From a virus (taxonomy: Duplodnaviria > Heunggongvirae > Uroviricota > Caudoviricetes), in IMG/VR virus record IMGVR_UViG_2529292830_000018: a stretch of DNA of 42,618 bases; one strand, 5' to 3'. Both the position numbers and the translations under genes were made by a program. The notes below the pieces were generated by a model that was not told the DNA's origin, searched no databases, and saw only the letters and a list, made by a program, of their open reading frames with translations. Positions 3,174 to 39,350 of this stretch are shown here, in pieces (position 1 is the stretch's first letter; every line of letters begins with the position of its first letter).

Positions 3174-3238
3174 TCGATTTTCTGCGGAGGTAATCCACCT
3201 CCGCTATTTTCTAATACATTGTGTGATTTACAATATTT

Positions 3239-32583: not shown

Positions 32584-32598
32584 TCGCTTTGTCAGCGA
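32584..32598 (-). promoter_or_regulatory. nutR boxB hairpin (P22 type)
   Basis: Minus strand TCGCTGACAAAGCGA: 5-bp stem, GACAA loop plus A; same core as the nutL hairpin. Confidence 0.55.
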
Positions 32599-32934: not shown

Positions 32935-33651
<717 letters not shown>

Positions 33652-33658
33652 CACGTAA

Positions 33659-34096
33659 ATGATTAAAGAACGTATTTCTTATATCATTCCGATTGCGATG
33701 GATGAAGGCAACCCAGTAACTCCAGTTCTTATCTATGAAATGGATAAAGACTCCCATGAAGTGGATCTATCATTTGGCGCTTTTTTTATCGGCCTTAAGG
33801 CTACAAAAAAATATTCCATAGGCATTGAGGTTTTCAATGCTCAAGAAATACCGATACCAATTGACACAAAACTGTACTCCAACCATAAGTTTTTTACGGT
33901 AGCAGAAGCCAACGATGGAGAAACCATCGTATCAACTTCTATGAGAATTAACTTCCCAAGGGTGAAAATTATCAAGCCTGGGATATTCGAAGTTAGAGCA
34001 TCACTGGTTAATCCTGATAAAGGCGAAGTAATTGATGTAAAAAGTTCGTTTTTTGACGTGAAGATAACAGGATCAGTTCGCGATGAGTTTAGATAA
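33659..34096 (+). CDS. Hypothetical protein occupying the rexA position (no similarity to RexA seen)
   Basis: 145-aa AT-rich ORF starting 8 bp after the cI stop; no TM segment; predicted soluble. Confidence 0.5.
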   Translation: MIKERISYIIPIAMDEGNPVTPVLIYEMDKDSHEVDLSFGAFFIGLKATKKYSIGIEVFNAQEIPIPIDTKLYSNHKFFTVAEANDGETIVSTSMRINFPRVKIIKPGIFEVRASLVNPDKGEVIDVKSSFFDVKITGSVRDEFR

Positions 34097-34454
34097 CAAG
34101 GTTGCTCAGCTTCGTCCAAATCAAAACATATCTCGCCCAATTGGACACTATTCCACTGATGATGCATACTCACGGCATGGTGGAGGAAACGGCGGAGGTA
34201 ACATGCTTGAGGCTAGAGTTGCAAAGCTAGAGTCTGATGTTGAATACATCAAGCGCGATCTCGCTGAAGTAAAGTCAGATATAAAATCTGTAGATTCTCG
34301 TCTGTCAGGTATTGAGACAAGCATTAGCTCAGCAAAAATCACCATCAAGGCATCTGCGGTCGTTGTCAGTTTCGTGTTCGCATTTTGCGCCTACATTTTT
34401 GGAAGTTATGTTTCCAAAATCCTTGATGCCTTAAACGGACTCGTTCTTAAGTAA
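34083..34454 (+). CDS. Hypothetical coiled-coil protein with C-terminal transmembrane helix, occupying the rexB position
   Basis: 123-aa ORF overlapping the upstream ORF by 14 nt; alternative start at 34203 (GGAGGT-aac-ATG, 83 aa). Gly-rich stretch, amphipathic coiled coil, hydrophobic helix AVVVSFVFAFCAYIFGSYV. Confidence 0.45.
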   Translation: MSLDNKVAQLRPNQNISRPIGHYSTDDAYSRHGGGNGGGNMLEARVAKLESDVEYIKRDLAEVKSDIKSVDSRLSGIETSISSAKITIKASAVVVSFVFAFCAYIFGSYVSKILDALNGLVLK

Positions 34455-34461
34455 CACACAA

Positions 34462-34487
34462 CCCGGCCTCAGCGCCGGGTTTTCTTT
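34462..34487 (+). terminator. Rho-independent terminator ending the cI operon (tImm-like)
   Basis: Stem CCCGGC/GCCGGG followed by TTTTCTTT. Confidence 0.65.
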
Positions 34488-34643
34488 GCCTCACGATCCC
34501 CTTCACCCAATAACACATAACCAATTGTATTTATTTGAAAATTAATAGATACAACTCACTAAACATCGCAATTCAGATCTCTCGATCACCTCCCAAGCCA
34601 CACACCCCTGCAAAAAAATAAATCTATATAAAAAACATACAGA

Positions 34644-34713
34644 TAACCATCTGCGGTGATAAATTATCTCTGGCGGTGTTGACATAAATACCACTGGCGG
34701 TGATACTAAACAC
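34644..34713 (+). promoter_or_regulatory. oL operators and pL promoter (lambda type)
   Basis: TAACCATCTGCGGTGATA, TATCTCTGGCGGTGTT, TACCACTGGCGGTGATA; -35 TTGACA (34679-34684), -10 GATACT (34701-34706). Confidence 0.9.
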
Positions 34714-34775
34714 ATCAGCAGGACGCACTACTCACCAGGGCGGTGAATATACAACGATTCGAATATGAATCTACG

Positions 34776-34790
34776 GCGCTGACAAAGCGC
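34776..34790 (+). promoter_or_regulatory. nutL boxB hairpin (P22 type)
   Basis: GCGCTGACAAAGCGC, matching recalled P22 boxB. Confidence 0.6.
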
Positions 34791-34955
34791 AATAACCAAA
34801 GTGAACTTTGGGGTGTGGTGAAGGGTTCATGGACGGGAATATGTCGCACGTAAAGCGGCGAGGCCTGCGGGACTATTGCCGAATTGAAGTAGGCCGAAAC
34901 AGGTCGAAATGGGTCTCCCACCTACCACACCACCAAAGTTCATCAGGAGGTCTAT

Positions 34956-35339
34956 ATGACACGCAGAACTCAGTTCAAAGGCAATTCACGTTCTCGTCGT
35001 CGTGAGCGTTTAAAGGCAAAGGCATTAGCTAACGGCGTACTGGCCCGCGAAGAAGCAATAAGTTCAGAAGTATTACACCGCCCTACTCTAAGCAGAGCGC
35101 AGATTCAGGCTAAAGGTACTCACAAAACGCCTGAGCGCATAGAAGACGCTAAGCCAATTAAGTTCATGGCACAGGACGTGATCTGGCAACAGAAAGAATA
35201 CAGACGCAATCTGGAGAGAGCGGCCATTGTGTACGCGAATGAGTTTGGACATAAGCAACCAGAAACTGGTGTATGTCTTCCAAATGTAGCTCTTTACGCA
35301 GCAGGATACCGGAAATCAAAACAACTGACGGCGAGGTAA
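34956..35339 (+). CDS. N-type antiterminator (P22 gp24-like)
   Basis: 127 aa; Arg-rich motif GNSRSRRRERLKAKA; C-terminus LPNVALYAAGYRKSKQLTAR resembles recalled P22 gp24; RBS AGGAGG. Confidence 0.75.
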   Translation: MTRRTQFKGNSRSRRRERLKAKALANGVLAREEAISSEVLHRPTLSRAQIQAKGTHKTPERIEDAKPIKFMAQDVIWQQKEYRRNLERAAIVYANEFGHKQPETGVCLPNVALYAAGYRKSKQLTAR

Positions 35340-35341
35340 TT

Positions 35342-35704
35342 ATGGGTCAAGAAGAAAAATATGAGCTTAAAAAGCTCATTGGAGAAGACGCCATAGAAGA
35401 AATTGCAGCATTAACAACAGCTATAAAGAATATTAGGTATGCGCTAAATACGCTTATCTCCTCATGCGACAAAAATAGCAGGGAATTTTTGATACTTGGC
35501 GCAGCTCTAGGAATAGTTGATGCGGCAACGCTTCACCTAATTACTCATGACGATATTCTTATTGAGCCGTATGAAACATTACTGCTTGTCAGGCAAAAAA
35601 TGGCTGATGCCGCAGCAAATGGAGACCTTCAACTTTACTTCGACTTAAGGAAAGTATTAAGGCGAATGGTCAGAACTGAAGGAGATATCCCCCTGACAAA
35701 GTAA
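35342..35704 (+). CDS. Hypothetical protein
   Basis: Start at MGQEEKYELKK (ATG 35342) preceded by GAGG, right after the N stop; the track ORF is longer (from 35273). Confidence 0.45.
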   Translation: MGQEEKYELKKLIGEDAIEEIAALTTAIKNIRYALNTLISSCDKNSREFLILGAALGIVDAATLHLITHDDILIEPYETLLLVRQKMADAAANGDLQLYFDLRKVLRRMVRTEGDIPLTK

Positions 35705-35734
35705 GGGGGTGAAGAGGCTATTTCAGGAATAAAA

Positions 35735-36229
35735 TTAATAATTTGTCAGCGGCGGAACATATACAGGCTTAGGGGCTGGCGCTCTATACATCCGGTATTC
35801 ATTCTTACAGCGAGGACATGAATGCACAAAGAATCCATTAGATTTTATAGTAACCGTGCTTGGTTGAAGTATCGATATTTTATGTTCGCCGAAGCAATGT
35901 GCACAAAGGTTATGCTGCTGAATAGAAGGATCGGAATGACTCTTAGGTCGATACACGACAGAACCACCTTCAGTTGTATGAAGTTCATAATTCTCAGCTT
36001 GCACAACAAACATCTTGATTTTTCTATTTTCATCTCGAAGCTTCATTGCGATCTCCTTCTCGGCCTGATAAAGGCCAGAGAGCTCCGCATTAAGCATCTG
36101 TAAGTCAGTTATTCTTTGGTGTAGATCACCAATAGCTTTAGCGATAACAGCATCATCTCTGGTTTCTTTTATTGTCTTCAGCAGATCATAAGCCTGTTTC
36201 GCGGCAGTTATACCAGATAATACATCCAT
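35735..36229 (-). CDS. Hypothetical coiled-coil / zinc-ribbon protein, transcribed against pL
   Basis: Start at MDVLSG (ATG 36229; track allows GTG at 36238); C-terminal CAHC...CPRC motif; AT-rich; opposite in orientation to all neighbours. Confidence 0.5.
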   Translation of the reverse strand: MDVLSGITAAKQAYDLLKTIKETRDDAVIAKAIGDLHQRITDLQMLNAELSGLYQAEKEIAMKLRDENRKIKMFVVQAENYELHTTEGGSVVYRPKSHSDPSIQQHNLCAHCFGEHKISILQPSTVTIKSNGFFVHSCPRCKNEYRMYRAPAPKPVYVPPLTNY

Positions 36230-36245
36230 ATAAATCACTCTCTTA

Positions 36246-36290
36246 CTGTAGGGGTAAGAGGATTTTACTATTTTTCTCGCTGTAGGGGTA
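36246..36290. promoter_or_regulatory. Direct repeats CTGTAGGGGTA flanking a putative promoter
   Basis: Identical 11-mers at 36246-36256 and 36280-36290, 34 bp apart, in the divergent intergenic region 36230..36432. Confidence 0.4.
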
Positions 36291-36432
36291 CACGAGAACC
36301 ACCGAGCCTGATGTGGTTAAAAGACAGGCACAATCTTTACTACCGCAAGCCACGCAGTGAAATTGGTGTGACTTGTGTTGGTCGCCAGAAAATGAAATTA
36401 GGCAGCAAACTACTTATTTGAGAGGAATTAAT

Positions 36433-37056
36433 ATGTCATCAATCCGCTTAACTACGAGAATGAAAGAGGAAATCGCTCGTAACGCTTTAATTAAGTCTGG
36501 GGTCTTCACTGAACTTGAAGAAGTAACAAAGTTAAAGAACCAGCTTGCACTTGACGCCAGAGTTATTGCGTTTGGCGGTAAAAAGAAAACTGAGGAAGTG
36601 GATCAGTTATCATCCAAGTTGGTAGCTATAAGTGAAGAACTTGAAAAGATGGGATGTTCATTTTACTCATACGATGTTAGTTCTACTTCAATTTATCTGA
36701 CTGTATCTGGCAGAAGGGTTGGATGGCATTCATATGGGAAAGACGGCAACGGCGAAGATATATTGCTCCCTACTCCGACCAAAGATAAATGCATGTTTAG
36801 CGCAGAACACGAAATAACAAAAAGGTTTGATGAAATCTGCGCATTGCAACAAAAACTTGAAGCCAAGAAAAAGGATATCGAATCAAATGTATGGGCTGCT
36901 TTGAACTCAGTCACAACAGTTAAGCGACTTATTGAGGTTTGGCCTGAAAGCAAAGAATTGCTACCAAAAGAAGCAGATAAAGCAAGTACAGCACTTCCTG
37001 CTTTACGGGTAGAAGATTTGAATAAGATGATTGGACTTCCTTCCGAGGCCGCATAG
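36433..37056 (+). CDS. Hypothetical protein
   Basis: Start at MSSIRLTTRMKEEI (ATG 36433) preceded by GAGGAA; 207 aa; own terminator. Confidence 0.5.
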   Translation: MSSIRLTTRMKEEIARNALIKSGVFTELEEVTKLKNQLALDARVIAFGGKKKTEEVDQLSSKLVAISEELEKMGCSFYSYDVSSTSIYLTVSGRRVGWHSYGKDGNGEDILLPTPTKDKCMFSAEHEITKRFDEICALQQKLEAKKKDIESNVWAALNSVTTVKRLIEVWPESKELLPKEADKASTALPALRVEDLNKMIGLPSEAA

Positions 37057-37072
37057 TCGGCCTTTATTTTTG
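37046..37072 (+). terminator. Rho-independent terminator
   Basis: Stem AGGCCG/CGGCCT spanning the stop codon, followed by TTATTTTTGG. Confidence 0.6.
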
Positions 37073-37094
37073 GCATAACCAATATGGGGTAAAA

Positions 37095-37421
37095 ATGAAA
37101 GTTTTAATGGTTTATGAAAATGTTCCAGAGTCGACTGAAATCTATATTTTTGATGCCAATGAAGATGAAGTTAACGATTTGAAATTGTCTCACGGCAATT
37201 ACACAAATGCTAATTGTGATGAAAGTATCGAAAAAGCACTATCACGTGTTCTTGTCAGAATTAGTGTTCCAGAACATTGTGATGATGATTGGCTTTCTTA
37301 TTGTGGAGCGGTAAAAACTGATGCAGGAAAATGGAGTAAAAGTAAAGTTGATAACTCAACTCCAATCATTATGAAAGATAGTGATATTGAAATGGTAATA
37401 ATAACCGGAATGATTATGTAG
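37095..37421 (+). CDS. Hypothetical protein (AT-rich)
   Basis: 108-aa ORF; followed by a long hairpin (37437-37473). Confidence 0.45.
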   Translation: MKVLMVYENVPESTEIYIFDANEDEVNDLKLSHGNYTNANCDESIEKALSRVLVRISVPEHCDDDWLSYCGAVKTDAGKWSKSKVDNSTPIIMKDSDIEMVIITGMIM

Positions 37422-37527
37422 GCTGCGAATAAGCACTGTGTATTCATTCCAACGAGTGAATACACGGAGCAATGTCGCTCGCAACTAAACAGGAGCCGAC
37501 TTGTTCTGATTATTGGAAATCTTCTTT

Positions 37528-37551
37528 GCCCTCCAGTGTGAGGGCTTTTTT
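37528..37551 (+). terminator. Rho-independent terminator (tL-like) upstream of cIII
   Basis: Stem GCCCTC/GAGGGC followed by TTTTTT. Confidence 0.65.
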
Positions 37552-37617
37552 ATATGCATACCAATAACGCTTCACTCGAGGCGTTTTCGTTATGCAATCA
37601 AACAGAAGGAGCATCCT

Positions 37618-37788
37618 ATGCAACAGTTCGCTATTGCAGGGGCGGCATCGGTTCGCCCTTTCAACCCGATTTTATCGGTACAGCATTCACGAAAAAATAT
37701 TTTAACCGGAGCAGACTTTAAACAACCAAGAATGAAAAGTTTGCTCGAAAAGCTTTGGGATATTTTGAAACAACAAGGCCGTCCATGA
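37618..37788 (+). CDS. cIII: CIII-like protein (FtsH inhibitor)
   Basis: 56 aa from MQQFAIAGAAS...KSLLEKLWDILKQQGRP; resembles lambda CIII at both ends; RBS AAGGAG. The longer track ORF overlaps the terminator. Confidence 0.6.
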   Translation: MQQFAIAGAASVRPFNPILSVQHSRKNILTGADFKQPRMKSLLEKLWDILKQQGRP

Positions 37789-37943
37789 ATTTTACAGATA
37801 ACTGGTCAGACGAAGAATTCATTCGTCAGATGAAAGAATTAATCGGTAACGAAGGAGATATTCATGTCACTTGCAACCACAGTGAAGGAGAGCAAGTTAC
37901 AGAGGCGCATGTACACGCAGAAAGCTCTCTGGTATCGACATAA
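37785..37943 (+). CDS. Hypothetical small protein at the kil position
   Basis: 52-aa ORF whose ATG overlaps the cIII stop (ATGA); function is guessed from position only. Confidence 0.35.
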   Translation: MNFTDNWSDEEFIRQMKELIGNEGDIHVTCNHSEGEQVTEAHVHAESSLVST

Positions 37944-38044
37944 TGGCGACCGCGAAGGAATGCGGGTATGCCTTAATTTGTCCAGAGTCGAAGTATTAAG
38001 TCAGCGTTATTTCCTTGGGGAATGTCCATTCTGAGAACAAACAT

Positions 38045-38650
38045 ATGAGCAAAGAATTTTACGCAAGGCTGGCAGCTATTCAGGAGAATCTGAACGCGCC
38101 AAAGAATCAGTACAACTCATTCGGCAAATATAAATACAGAAGCTGCGAAGATATTCTTGAAGGCGTTAAGCCGTTACTGAATGGTCTGTTTTTATCAATC
38201 AGCGATGAAGTTGTGTTGATTGGTGATCGGTATTACGTGAAAGCAACGGCAACTATTACTGATGGCGAAAACAGTCATACAGCAACCGCTCTTGCACGAG
38301 AGGAAGAAAGCAAGAAAGGAATGGATTCTGCACAAGTTACGGGAGCTACAAGCTCTTATGCACGCAAGTATTGCCTCAATGGTTTGTTCGGCATTGATGA
38401 TGCGAAAGATGCAGATACCGACGAGCATAAACATCGGCAGAACGCAGCAGCAAAGCAATCAAAACCATCACCTACACCTGAACAGGTTCTAAAAGCATTC
38501 ACTGACGCAGCATTGCAGAAAAACACCGTGGAAGAGCTTAAACAGGCGTTCGCCAAAGCGTGGAAGATGCTCGAAGGCACACCGGAGCAGCACAAAGCGC
38601 AGGACGTTTACAACATCAGACGAGACGAATTAGAAGGAGCGGCTGCTTAA
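38045..38650 (+). CDS. erf: Erf recombinase (single-strand annealing protein)
   Basis: Start MSKEFYARLAAIQENLNAPKNQYNSFGKYKYRSCEDILEGVKPLL matches recalled P22 Erf. Confidence 0.85.
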   Translation: MSKEFYARLAAIQENLNAPKNQYNSFGKYKYRSCEDILEGVKPLLNGLFLSISDEVVLIGDRYYVKATATITDGENSHTATALAREEESKKGMDSAQVTGATSSYARKYCLNGLFGIDDAKDADTDEHKHRQNAAAKQSKPSPTPEQVLKAFTDAALQKNTVEELKQAFAKAWKMLEGTPEQHKAQDVYNIRRDELEGAAA

Positions 38651-39033
38651 TGGCACATTCGATTACTGTAAGACTAAACAAGCCCGCAAGAGAGTTTCAG
38701 GCCGGGGAAAATATCGGATTCAACATCCGTGCTGGCGTTCAGTATTACGATCGCCAGACAAAAAAGAAAGAATGGACAAACTACAGCGCCGTTGTATTTG
38801 CCAAGCCGGGAGCGCAAGCGGATTACTACCGTAGTGTTCTTGTTGAAGGTGGCATTGTTGAAATTACCGGAGAAAACATCAGGGTTGATGTTTATCAGGG
38901 GCAAAATGGTCAATCAATCAATCTTGAATTACTGAATGCAAAGATTGGATTTGCAACTTCAGGAAACAGCCAACAGCAGCAAAGTAGCAATCATCAAAAT
39001 CATCCTGAATACGACGATTCAATTCCCTTCTAG
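38650..39033 (+). CDS. Single-stranded DNA-binding protein-like
   Basis: 127 aa from MAHSITVRLNK; Q-rich linker and acidic C-terminal tail ending DDSIPF, like the SSB tail; start overlaps the erf stop. Confidence 0.55.
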   Translation: MAHSITVRLNKPAREFQAGENIGFNIRAGVQYYDRQTKKKEWTNYSAVVFAKPGAQADYYRSVLVEGGIVEITGENIRVDVYQGQNGQSINLELLNAKIGFATSGNSQQQQSSNHQNHPEYDDSIPF

Positions 39034-39056
39034 ATTTGCAAAATAAGGATTTAATT

Positions 39057-39350
39057 ATGCCAGCGCCTCTGTATGGTGCGGATGACCCGCGCCGCTGTTC
39101 CGGCAATTCCGTATCGGAGGTGCTGGATAAATTCAGAAAAAACTACGATCGGATAATGTCGCTACCGCAGGAAACAAAAAAGGAAAAGGAATTTCGCCAC
39201 TGTATATGGCTTGCAGAGAAAGAAGAACGCGAGCGAATTTACCAGACATCAATCCGACCATTCCGCAAAGCCACATATACCCACTTCCCTGAAATTGACC
39301 CGCGCCTGCGTAATTACCGCTCACGCTATGGCGCTATCAGTAATGACTGA
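39057..39350 (+). CDS. Hypothetical protein
   Basis: Start MPAPLYG preceded by AAGGA. Confidence 0.4.

Follow-up and report, generated by a model that had tools for sequence, protein, structure and literature searches.

Accessory genes and shared stem-loops between N and cIII in the PL operon of a lambdoid prophage

Results

Organization of the N–cIII interval

The DNA analysed, a window of 42,618 nucleotides, is a lambdoid prophage and is 100% identical to one found in E. coli NCCP 13717. On the + strand, the order of the elements is PL, nutL boxB, N, the interval studied here and cIII, the latter being the first backbone gene found after the variable interval (Table 1). PL was assigned on the basis of the homologous site, labelled PL in the HK542 record, and of a lambda cI gene at 32938-33651; in a consensus scan it is the sole strong promoter-like site located 5' of the interval on this strand. 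The boxB sequence is presumably the same as that of the P22 nutL boxB. The interval, bounded by N and cIII, belongs to the PL (early leftward) operon and is an accessory region of hypervariable content.

Table 1. Features of the PL operon from the promoter to cIII. Positions refer to the whole window.
Feature	Position	Strand	Basis
PL promoter, TTGACA-17-GATACT, inside lambda-type OL operators	34679-34707	+	scan, consensus 10/12
nutL boxB, GCGCTGACAAAGCGC	34776-34790	+	exact match; 0.23 expected by chance at <=2 mismatches
N-type antiterminator, 127 aa, Arg-rich N terminus	34956-35339	+	PF25694 N_peptide, E = 9.5e-16; phrog_271; RefSeq product name
orf120, phrog_7374	35342-35704	+	phrog match, RefSeq annotation
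Antisense gene, 164 aa, phrog_1244	35735-36229	-	ORF list, phrog match, RefSeq annotation
3' remnant of a dead lambda/HK542-type N gene	36338-36421	+	alignment; ...YYRKPRSEIGVTCVGRQKMKLGSKLLI in ORF list
ORF1, 207 aa, full-length Nmad5 family	36433-37056	+	PF18757, phrog_1965; same ORF annotated in RefSeq
Terminator-like hairpin with T tract after ORF1	37045-37073	+	stem 37045-37051/37058-37064, then TATTTTT
ORF2 cassette, 342 bp: Shine-Dalgarno GGGG, ORF 37095-37421, 5 nt	37085-37426	+	alignments with relatives
14-pair hairpin without T tract	core 37436-37449/37454-37467, outer extension over 37425-37478	+	folding
Intrinsic terminator homologous to lambda tL2a	37528-37551	+	stem 37528-37533/37540-37545, then TTTTTT
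Second terminator-like hairpin	37566-37590	+	stem 37566-37573/37578-37585, then TTCGTT
cIII homologue, 56 aa	37618-37788	+	phrog_550, E = 1e-22; cIII label in HK542 record

An earlier note had reported, in the last part of this interval, two ORFs of unknown function followed by strong stem-loops, and had taken them for morons with private terminators, forming an accessory island of about 1.7 kb together with the antisense gene located upstream. The two ORFs and the stem-loops at 37045-37073, 37436-37467 and 37528-37551 were all found again by ORF calls, scan and folding. The single island had to be rejected, because its three modules, namely orf120 with the antisense gene, Nmad5 (ORF1) and ORF2, occur apart, each being found without the others. 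The first of them is an independent module by itself: its antisense gene occurs in strains HB37 and O26 RM8426 accompanied by neither Nmad5 nor ORF2, and is thus unlinked to ORF1 and ORF2. The protein encoded by this gene has an N-terminal coiled coil and, at the C terminus, a CxxC...CxxC motif. The N gene remnant preceding ORF1 is the left homology arm, which moves together with the Nmad5 cassette.

ORF1, a solitary Nmad5 gene

ORF1 starts 12 nt past the stop codon of the N gene remnant and has a G+C content of 40.4%, only mildly low relative to the 46.2% of the window. Its match to the Pfam family Nmad5 spans the full model (profile positions 1-206 of 206) and scores very high, 241.5 bits against a Pfam gathering threshold of 27 bits. 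Contrary to the earlier note, ORF1 is thus not entirely devoid of a family assignment. For ORF2, no Pfam, NCBIfam or PADLOC match was found. PADLOC, NCBIfam and PDB searches gave no match for ORF1, and its AF2 model (pLDDT 85) produced no enzyme-like fold match. Of 5426 complete E. coli genomes, 211 carry the Nmad5 gene, at 229 places altogether. In the prophage studied here it holds the slot occupied by ral in lambda; in strain ETEC1701 it separates ral from the hairpin, as additional DNA relative to lambda.

As the family name suggests, ORF1 might take part in the modification of phage DNA or nucleotides, ORF2 being an unrelated passenger, but this is considered improbable. Besides the full-length Nmad5 match, two published observations speak for it: in M6/SN1-type phages Nmad5 lies within the thymidine-hypermodification gene cassette (PMC9476957), and in Dhillonvirus a missense change in nmad5 leads to escape from the Tmn defence system (PMC11846954). 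Deletion of the Dhillonvirus gene, however, left Tmn sensitivity unchanged, and a gain of function, rather than enzyme loss, was suggested by the authors (PMC11846954); this work, itself indirect, is the only experimental literature on Nmad5 that was found. The family owes its name to a link, in genomes, with enzymes that modify nucleotides or bases; no such link is seen within 9.5 kb of ORF1, where the annotated genes are N, cIII, Erf, an anti-RecBCD protein and similar ones, and where none of the possible partners (aGPT-Pplase, 5-hmdU kinase, hydroxymethylase) is annotated. The only methyltransferase in the vicinity is located about 3 kb downstream, in another module. While Nmad5 is part of a base-hypermodification cluster in M6/SN1-type phages and adjoins capsid genes in Dhillonvirus, ORF1 has no such neighbours and is solitary within a lambdoid early operon.

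ORF2, a cassette inserted in the backbone

ORF2 codes for 108 aa and is called identically in the RefSeq record. Its cassette is inserted in the 18-nt spacer separating the linker which follows ORF1 (see below) from the 14-pair hairpin; the insert has no more than 10 nt before the ATG and ends 5 nt past the stop codon. The insert is absent from the otherwise collinear site in lambda, HK542, mEp235 and HK75, and the view of both ORFs as variably present accessory genes is borne out. ORF2 was found at 16 places in 16 of the 5426 genomes, preceded in the same slot by Nmad5, ral, a 104-aa ORF or an 83-aa ORF.

The G+C content of ORF2 is 32.7%, against 46.2% for the whole window, and the protein is acidic, with a pI of 4.4 and 20 acidic versus 10 basic residues. 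An 81%-identical homologue is located in another lambdoid prophage, after Ral and just upstream of cIII. With a dN/dS of 0.08 in this comparison, and a pLDDT of 96.7 for its AF2 model, ORF2 is a genuine gene under strong purifying selection. Its fold is confidently predicted and, as modelled, unlike any solved structure. A profile search of PDB sequences returned nothing, and comparison of the model with BFVD gave matches limited to its own uncharacterised phage family. Five homologues were obtained by word-indexed search and 52 cluster representatives, none of them named, by exhaustive HMMER search. The family, phrog_4658, is carried by temperate lambdoid, virulent T4-like and Klebsiella phages; the copy of RB16, in the T4-like group, lies in a run of small genes including ndd.

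Stem-loops of the interval

The hairpin following ORF1, found by pattern scan, folds at -11 kcal/mol, with a modest z of -1.4. The ORF1 stop codon sits within its loop: the final part of the ORF1 reading frame makes up the 5' arm, while the 3' arm and the T tract are formed by a linker, GGCCTTTATTTTTGGCATAA, which is also found behind ral and other genes or cassettes. The structure cannot, for this reason, be regarded as a terminator private to ORF1. A role as terminator is itself uncertain, given this modest energy and the degraded state of the hairpin in HK542 and lambda.

The 14-pair hairpin folds at -27.4 kcal/mol (z = -5.6), a value matched by 0/200 shuffles. It belongs to the lambda ral–ea10 spacer, shows 96-97% identity to its counterparts in lambda, HK75, HK542 and mEp235, and is nearly invariant across 132 copies, which are too alike for covariation and contain single changes only, with no compensatory pairs. 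It is possibly an RNA processing or stability element.

The hairpin at 37528-37551 is labelled 'Transcription terminator tL2a' in the record of phage O276, and as a terminator in that of HK75. The name tL2a is taken from the O276 GenBank annotation; a literature search for it returned nothing relevant. A fourth element, missed by the earlier note, was observed at 37566-37585, immediately before the ribosome-binding site of cIII. It folds at -16.2 kcal/mol (z = -5.6), is annotated as a terminator in the HK75 record and corresponds in position to lambda tL2b.

Terminator-like sites are 9 in the region 34400-39200, versus 4.1 +/- 2.2 in shuffles, and the whole spacer 37422-37640 folds with a z of -6.35. 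In a Rfam scan of 34400-38100 (E <= 1), the two matches obtained were both sub-threshold and attributable to chance, so that no known RNA family covers the hairpins.

From 37425 to 37620, and likewise over 37433-37600, the DNA is 96-97% identical to the lambda ral–ea10–cIII spacer containing tL2a and tL2b, with the same elements in the same order and in the same position ahead of cIII; to the lambda tL2 cluster it can be assigned by this ordered homology and by the G+C-rich hairpins with T tracts. The two phages differ in the genes hosted: in lambda, ea10 is located between tL2a and tL2b and splits the spacer into two pieces, whereas here this slot is empty (20 nt); upstream of the 14-pair hairpin, lambda has the 18-nt spacer only, whereas here ORF2 is inserted. 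The hairpins at 37436-37467, 37528-37551 and 37566-37585 are elements of the backbone, carried without ORF2 by lambda, HK75, HK542 and mEp235, and are not private terminators of this gene.

A rather doubtful reading is that the stem-loops serve chiefly for RNA processing or for translational control of the cIII leader, rather than as terminators, the ORFs having landed in a tolerant spacer. Translation of lambda cIII depends on alternative mRNA structures and on RNase III, and the unusually structured spacer, as well as the near invariance of a hairpin devoid of T tract, would fit such a role. Two elements, however, have the canonical shape of terminators and are annotated as such in phage records, and the hairpin copies are so alike that compensatory changes cannot test the structure. 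Control of cIII in this way can be compatible with the explanation proposed below, the two not being mutually exclusive.

Prevalence of the spacer and of its cassette slots

Searched for in 5426 complete E. coli genomes, the backbone spacer was located at 3231 places, spread over 2248 of them. At 126 hairpin loci, the gene directly 5' of the hairpin belongs to about 15 or more unrelated families. Slot occupancy was evaluated for the subset of these loci with enough upstream sequence. The slot between linker and hairpin is empty in 50 of them, contains ORF2 in 5 and other cassettes in 9, while in 47 no linker is found within 1200 nt; the slot between tL2a and tL2b is empty in 39 and has the size of ea10 in 20. 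The stem-loops are a punctuation almost identical among lambda, HK022-like, Stx and many other prophages. As they are shared by lambda and thousands of prophages, the layout of the interval is an ordinary one.

Discussion

The interval is best explained, with a probability of roughly 0.75, as a succession of cassettes without promoters of their own, with conserved punctuation between them, read from PL under N. The punctuation comprises the linker with its hairpin and T tract, the 14-pair hairpin, tL2a and the second terminator before cIII. Being nearly identical in different prophages, these sequences would provide homology for recombination, so that cassettes could be swapped in and out between them. 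ORF1 and ORF2 would be transcribed from PL only once N modifies RNA polymerase at nutL, the modified polymerase reading through the terminators, and would be silent in the repressed lysogen; they would thus be delayed-early genes of infection or induction, rather than morons expressed by the prophage. The terminators of lambda keep downstream genes, including cIII, kil and the recombination genes, dependent on N. By homology with lambda, both termination and N-dependent read-through are expected here, and read-through from PL under N antitermination is the likeliest mode of expression of the two ORFs.

The signature of morons, proposed earlier for the locus, stands as far as the extra DNA and the composition of ORF2 are concerned, and falls for the promoter and the terminator that the insert should own. 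ORF2 resembles the morons described in HK97 and HK022 in being 'more DNA' between elements adjacent in relatives, in its atypical base composition and in its assortment, independent from that of its neighbours; unlike them, its insert includes no terminator and, by consensus scan, no promoter. It is quite unlikely that the two ORFs are true morons, each autonomous, with its own promoter and terminator, switched on in the repressed prophage and conferring an exclusion or fitness trait. The AT-rich extra DNA and the terminator-like hairpins 3' of both ORFs would agree with such a view, as would the contents of the same region elsewhere, which include prophage-expressed exclusion genes (lambda sieB, HK75 and O276 nun, the last with its own annotated promoter in O276) and, in O26 strains, an annotated 'superinfection exclusion protein'. 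A consensus scan of the + strand from 35851 to 37387, which weak or non-sigma-70 promoters would escape, revealed no sigma-70-like site before either ORF, and the 10 nt and 5 nt flanking ORF2 within the insert also argue against autonomy. In addition, the hairpins after ORF2 are present in about 3200 prophage copies without it, both ORFs are co-oriented with PL, directly downstream of N and nutL, and ORF2 homologues exist in strictly virulent phages, where a lysogen-specific function would be senseless. As ORF2 points the same way as the antiterminated early operon that contains it, its expression by the prophage is not expected.

ORF1 and ORF2 have known counterparts in the same genomic slot: lambda ral, sieB and ea10, HK022 nun and P22 gene 17. 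Such genes are dispensable, variably present and linked to conflicts of phages with their hosts or with one another. Lambda ral ends in the same linker sequence as ORF1, while neither ORF1 nor ORF2 has sequence or fold similarity to any of the five. ORF2 is also, like Ral, Ocr and ArdA-like proteins, a small acidic protein of an early operon, encoded near the ral slot, a resemblance not to be read as functional evidence; Pfam, NCBIfam, PADLOC and PDB profile searches found no similarity of ORF2 to characterised anti-restriction or anti-defence proteins. By analogy with slot neighbours such as Ral, both proteins are likely to be host-takeover or counter-defence factors; this is the weakest step of the proposed explanation and an inference, not a result. 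Only tentatively, ORF2 may stand for an uncharacterised family of early proteins, small, acidic and new in structure, blocking a host defence or taking over a host function, and solitary lambdoid Nmad5 proteins may be non-enzymatic and interact with host immunity, for example through Tmn-type sensing, rather than being DNA-modification enzymes. Since ORF2 is rare, strongly purified by selection and predicted to have a fold unlike solved structures, it is a reasonable candidate for an anti-defence screen.

When lambdoid early operons are annotated, the hairpins found beside a gene should not be taken as its own terminators. Those described here are operon punctuation, derived from a lambda-type backbone and doubling as recombination joints. 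Two discrete cassette slots, one between linker and hairpin and the other between tL2a and tL2b, have been mapped, whose borders are nearly identical in thousands of prophages; they offer a simple route to harvest candidate early accessory genes.

Organization of the interval

Over 34600-38100, this lambdoid prophage matches the E. coli NCCP 13717 chromosome at 100% identity; among 5426 complete genomes, no other covered at least 80% of the segment. Its features are collected in the table below. Both ORFs and the three stem-loops are present at the positions given in the earlier note, and the placement of the ORFs between N and cIII was correct. The cIII gene is followed by small ORFs, which records of related prophages show as Kil-like, and by Erf and an anti-RecBCD gene.

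Features of the prophage segment, in window positions
Feature	Position	Strand	Remarks
Lambda-type cI	32938-33651
PL promoter	34679-34707	+
nutL boxB	34776-34790	+	exact match to a type which we take to be that of P22
N-family antiterminator	34956-35339	+	PF25694
orf120	35342-35704	+	phrog_7374
Antisense gene	35735-36229	-	164 aa, phrog_1244
N-gene 3' remnant	36338-36421	+	ends in YYRKPRSEIGVTCVGRQKMKLGSKLLI
ORF1	36433-37056	+	207 aa, Nmad5
Post-ORF1 stem	37045-37051/37058-37064		7 pairs, then TATTTTT
ORF2	37095-37421	+	108 aa, phrog_4658
Hairpin without T tract	37436-37449/37454-37467		14 pairs
tL2a	37528-37551		stem 37528-37545, then TTTTTT
Fourth element	37566-37585
cIII homologue	37618-37788	+	phrog_550

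The leader between PL and N (34708-34960) is highly structured (z = -4.3), with a long stem pairing ~34801-34819 with 34917-34936, immediately 5' of the N ribosome-binding site, a layout reminiscent of the lambda N leader with its processing by RNase III. The minus strand holds a second boxB-like sequence, TCGCTGACAAAGCGA (32584-32598), which is probably nutR. The position of rexA and rexB in lambda, between cI and PL, is taken here by two ORFs encoding 145 and 123 aa (33659-34454), the second with a hydrophobic C terminus, and a terminator (34460-34481) comes after them. The two may form a defence or exclusion pair expressed from the prophage; PADLOC gave no significant match for them.

Stem-loops of the spacer

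The hairpin lacking a T tract exists, and is stronger than had been described: its 14 pairs yield -27.4 kcal/mol (z = -5.6), and none of 200 shuffled sequences folded equally well. The following element, tL2a, has the shape of a textbook terminator, and a fourth one, previously overlooked, folds at -16.2 kcal/mol (z = -5.6). The entire 219-nt spacer folds at z = -6.35; terminator-like sites number 9, roughly double the 4.1 +/- 2.2 of shuffled sequence.

The decisive comparison was an alignment with lambda, HK75, HK542 and O276, in which window 37433-37600 proved to be the ral–ea10–cIII spacer of lambda (96-97% identity); in lambda the spacer is divided into two pieces by the ea10 gene. The fourth element lies just 5' of the cIII ribosome-binding site, at what we take to be the position of lambda tL2b. 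The tL2a sequence is labelled "Transcription terminator tL2a" in the GenBank record of phage O276, and both it and the downstream hairpin are annotated as terminators in that of HK75. In HK542, mEp235, HK75 and lambda the hairpin and terminator elements are present and ORF2 is absent. Among the 5426 complete E. coli genomes, the spacer (37425-37600) was found at 3231 places in 2248 genomes, the Nmad5 gene at 229 places in 211, and ORF2 at 16 places in 16. The identity with lambda, the ORF2-free relatives and the prevalence of the spacer relative to ORF2 thus assign the hairpin and the two terminators to the backbone of the operon, and not, as had been suggested, to ORF2 as its private terminators.

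In a more distant lambdoid prophage (Logan contig ERR4405589_1369, 4328-4535) hairpins and a terminator, GGCCTCTTCGTGAGGCCATTTTTTT, lie between an ORF2 homologue and cIII. By eye, no clear sequence resemblance links this spacer to the lambda-type one, so that the design itself, with a terminator before cIII, seems to be conserved, and not sequence alone. A 31-codon ORF (37472-37567, +), with GGAG 5 nt 5' of its ATG, crosses the tL2a hairpin; its frame is also open in lambda, for 29 codons, and may reflect chance or a small translated ORF of the conserved spacer.

The linker following ORF1

The ORF1 stop codon lies inside the loop of the post-ORF1 hairpin, whose 3' arm and T tract form a linker, GGCCTTTATTTTTGGCATAA, also found behind other genes: ral in lambda and strain SW070919, a 104-aa ORF in strain 2014EL-1343-2, an 83-aa ORF in strain ES5, and further genes in IMG/VR viral contigs. 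This terminator is therefore not private to ORF1 either. In ETEC1701, where the order is ral, linker, Nmad5, linker, ORF2, the Nmad5 gene is bracketed by the linker on both sides. Since the 5' arm is supplied by the end of whatever gene precedes, hairpin strength differs by locus (-11 kcal/mol in the window, -11.9 in SW070919, -13.9 in ES5, about -5 in HK542). The lambda linker forms no terminator-like hairpin, its best fold (-6 kcal/mol) being no better than shuffled sequence.

The ORF1 and ORF2 cassettes

ORF1 is a full-length member of Nmad5 (PF18757; score 241.5 bits, cut-off 27), with homologues spread through Enterobacterales; its AF2 model (pLDDT 85) combines a long helical coiled-coil with a small beta sheet and, at the C terminus, short helices. 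The family name derives from gene neighbourhoods in thymidine-hypermodifying phages (PMC9476957); no partner genes for this modification are annotated near ORF1. In the single experimental study of Nmad5 found, a Dhillonvirus escaped from Tmn defence through a missense change in its nmad5 gene, though not through deletion of the gene, which also resisted cloning, apparently through toxicity (PMC11846954).

Directly 5' of Nmad5 lies the defunct 3' end of an N gene of the lambda/HK542 type, whose stop codon precedes the Nmad5 start by 12 nt. The prophage's working N belongs to another, P22-like type. In HK542 Nmad5 directly follows an intact N gene, and in mEp235 the same remnant lies behind a nun-like gene. 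The remnant looks like a left homology arm moving with the Nmad5 cassette.

Compared with the empty site, formed by GGCATAAAnAACA joined to GAATAAACACTGCACTG, the window contains 342 additional bases (37085-37426), consisting of TGGGGTAAAA, ORF2 and 5 nt; judged from this composition, the insert is too small for a promoter and carries no terminator. A promoter scan revealed no sigma-70-like site on the plus strand of 35851-37387. ORF2 is acidic (pI 4.4), its structure is predicted with very high confidence (pLDDT 96.7), and a dN/dS of 0.08 against an 81%-identical homologue indicates strong purifying selection. That homologue, in another lambdoid prophage, follows Ral and again lies just 5' of cIII. 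A search of 1.8 billion proteins found 52 cluster representatives of this small family. Its members include proteins of virulent phages, both T4-like and Klebsiella ones; the RB16 homologue belongs to a run of small genes including ndd.

The upstream module

The orf120 and antisense genes (35342-36229) form a module that recurs as a unit in further E. coli prophages. Strains HB37 and O26 RM8426 carry them without Nmad5 or ORF2; the proposed single accessory island of about 1.7 kb hence resolves into three or more modules that assort independently. Some RefSeq records name the orf120 product 'antitermination N domain protein'. The antisense gene, coiled-coil and zinc-ribbon-like, has the position and orientation of lambda sieB, yet is unrelated to it. 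Two copies of the 11-mer CTGTAGGGGTA (36246-36256 and 36280-36290, 34 bp apart), the first also part of a bidirectional hairpin (36239-36261), flank the region just upstream of its start codon (36229, minus strand) and, from their placement, could be operator sites around its promoter.

Occupancy of the slots

Viral contigs with the exact 16-mer just 3' of the hairpin, combined with loci from earlier comparisons, provided at least 132 hairpin copies, 126 with enough upstream sequence to call the adjacent gene; the loci, from among the matches listed, are non-independent and all counts are illustrative only. Among the matches listed, the hairpin is nearly invariant in the 132 copies, and the gene immediately 5' of it belongs, over the 126 loci, to about 15 or more unrelated families, with Ral (at least 35 loci), a 156-aa family (at least 19), Nmad5 (at least 14), a 149-aa membrane protein (at least 10), a 62-aa family (at least 8) and ORF2 (at least 5) as the largest. 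In loci with at least 1200 nt 5' of the hairpin, the linker-to-hairpin slot was empty (18 nt) in at least 50, and filled by ORF2 in at least 5 and by other cassettes of 223-513 nt in at least 9, every cassette opening with a Shine-Dalgarno sequence directly behind the linker; in at least 47 further loci no linker was found within 1200 nt. The tL2a-to-tL2b slot was empty (20 nt) in at least 39 loci and ea10-sized in at least 20.

Interpretation

The interval has a cassette-and-punctuation architecture, with stem-loops that are those of the lambda backbone. By analogy with lambda, ORF1 and ORF2 would be transcribed from PL; without N, termination would occur at the hairpins, and N bound at nutL would allow read-through, resulting in delayed-early expression in the lytic cycle. 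Neighbours of the slot such as Ral, the orientation of the genes, the acidity of ORF2 and its presence in virulent phages hint at counter-defence or host-takeover proteins. The view of both ORFs as morons holds for variably present accessory DNA, and fails on its defining point: neither are the units self-contained nor are the terminators private to them. The ORF2 family provides one modest lead; the locus itself represents ordinary, though neatly resolvable, lambdoid mosaicism around known terminators.
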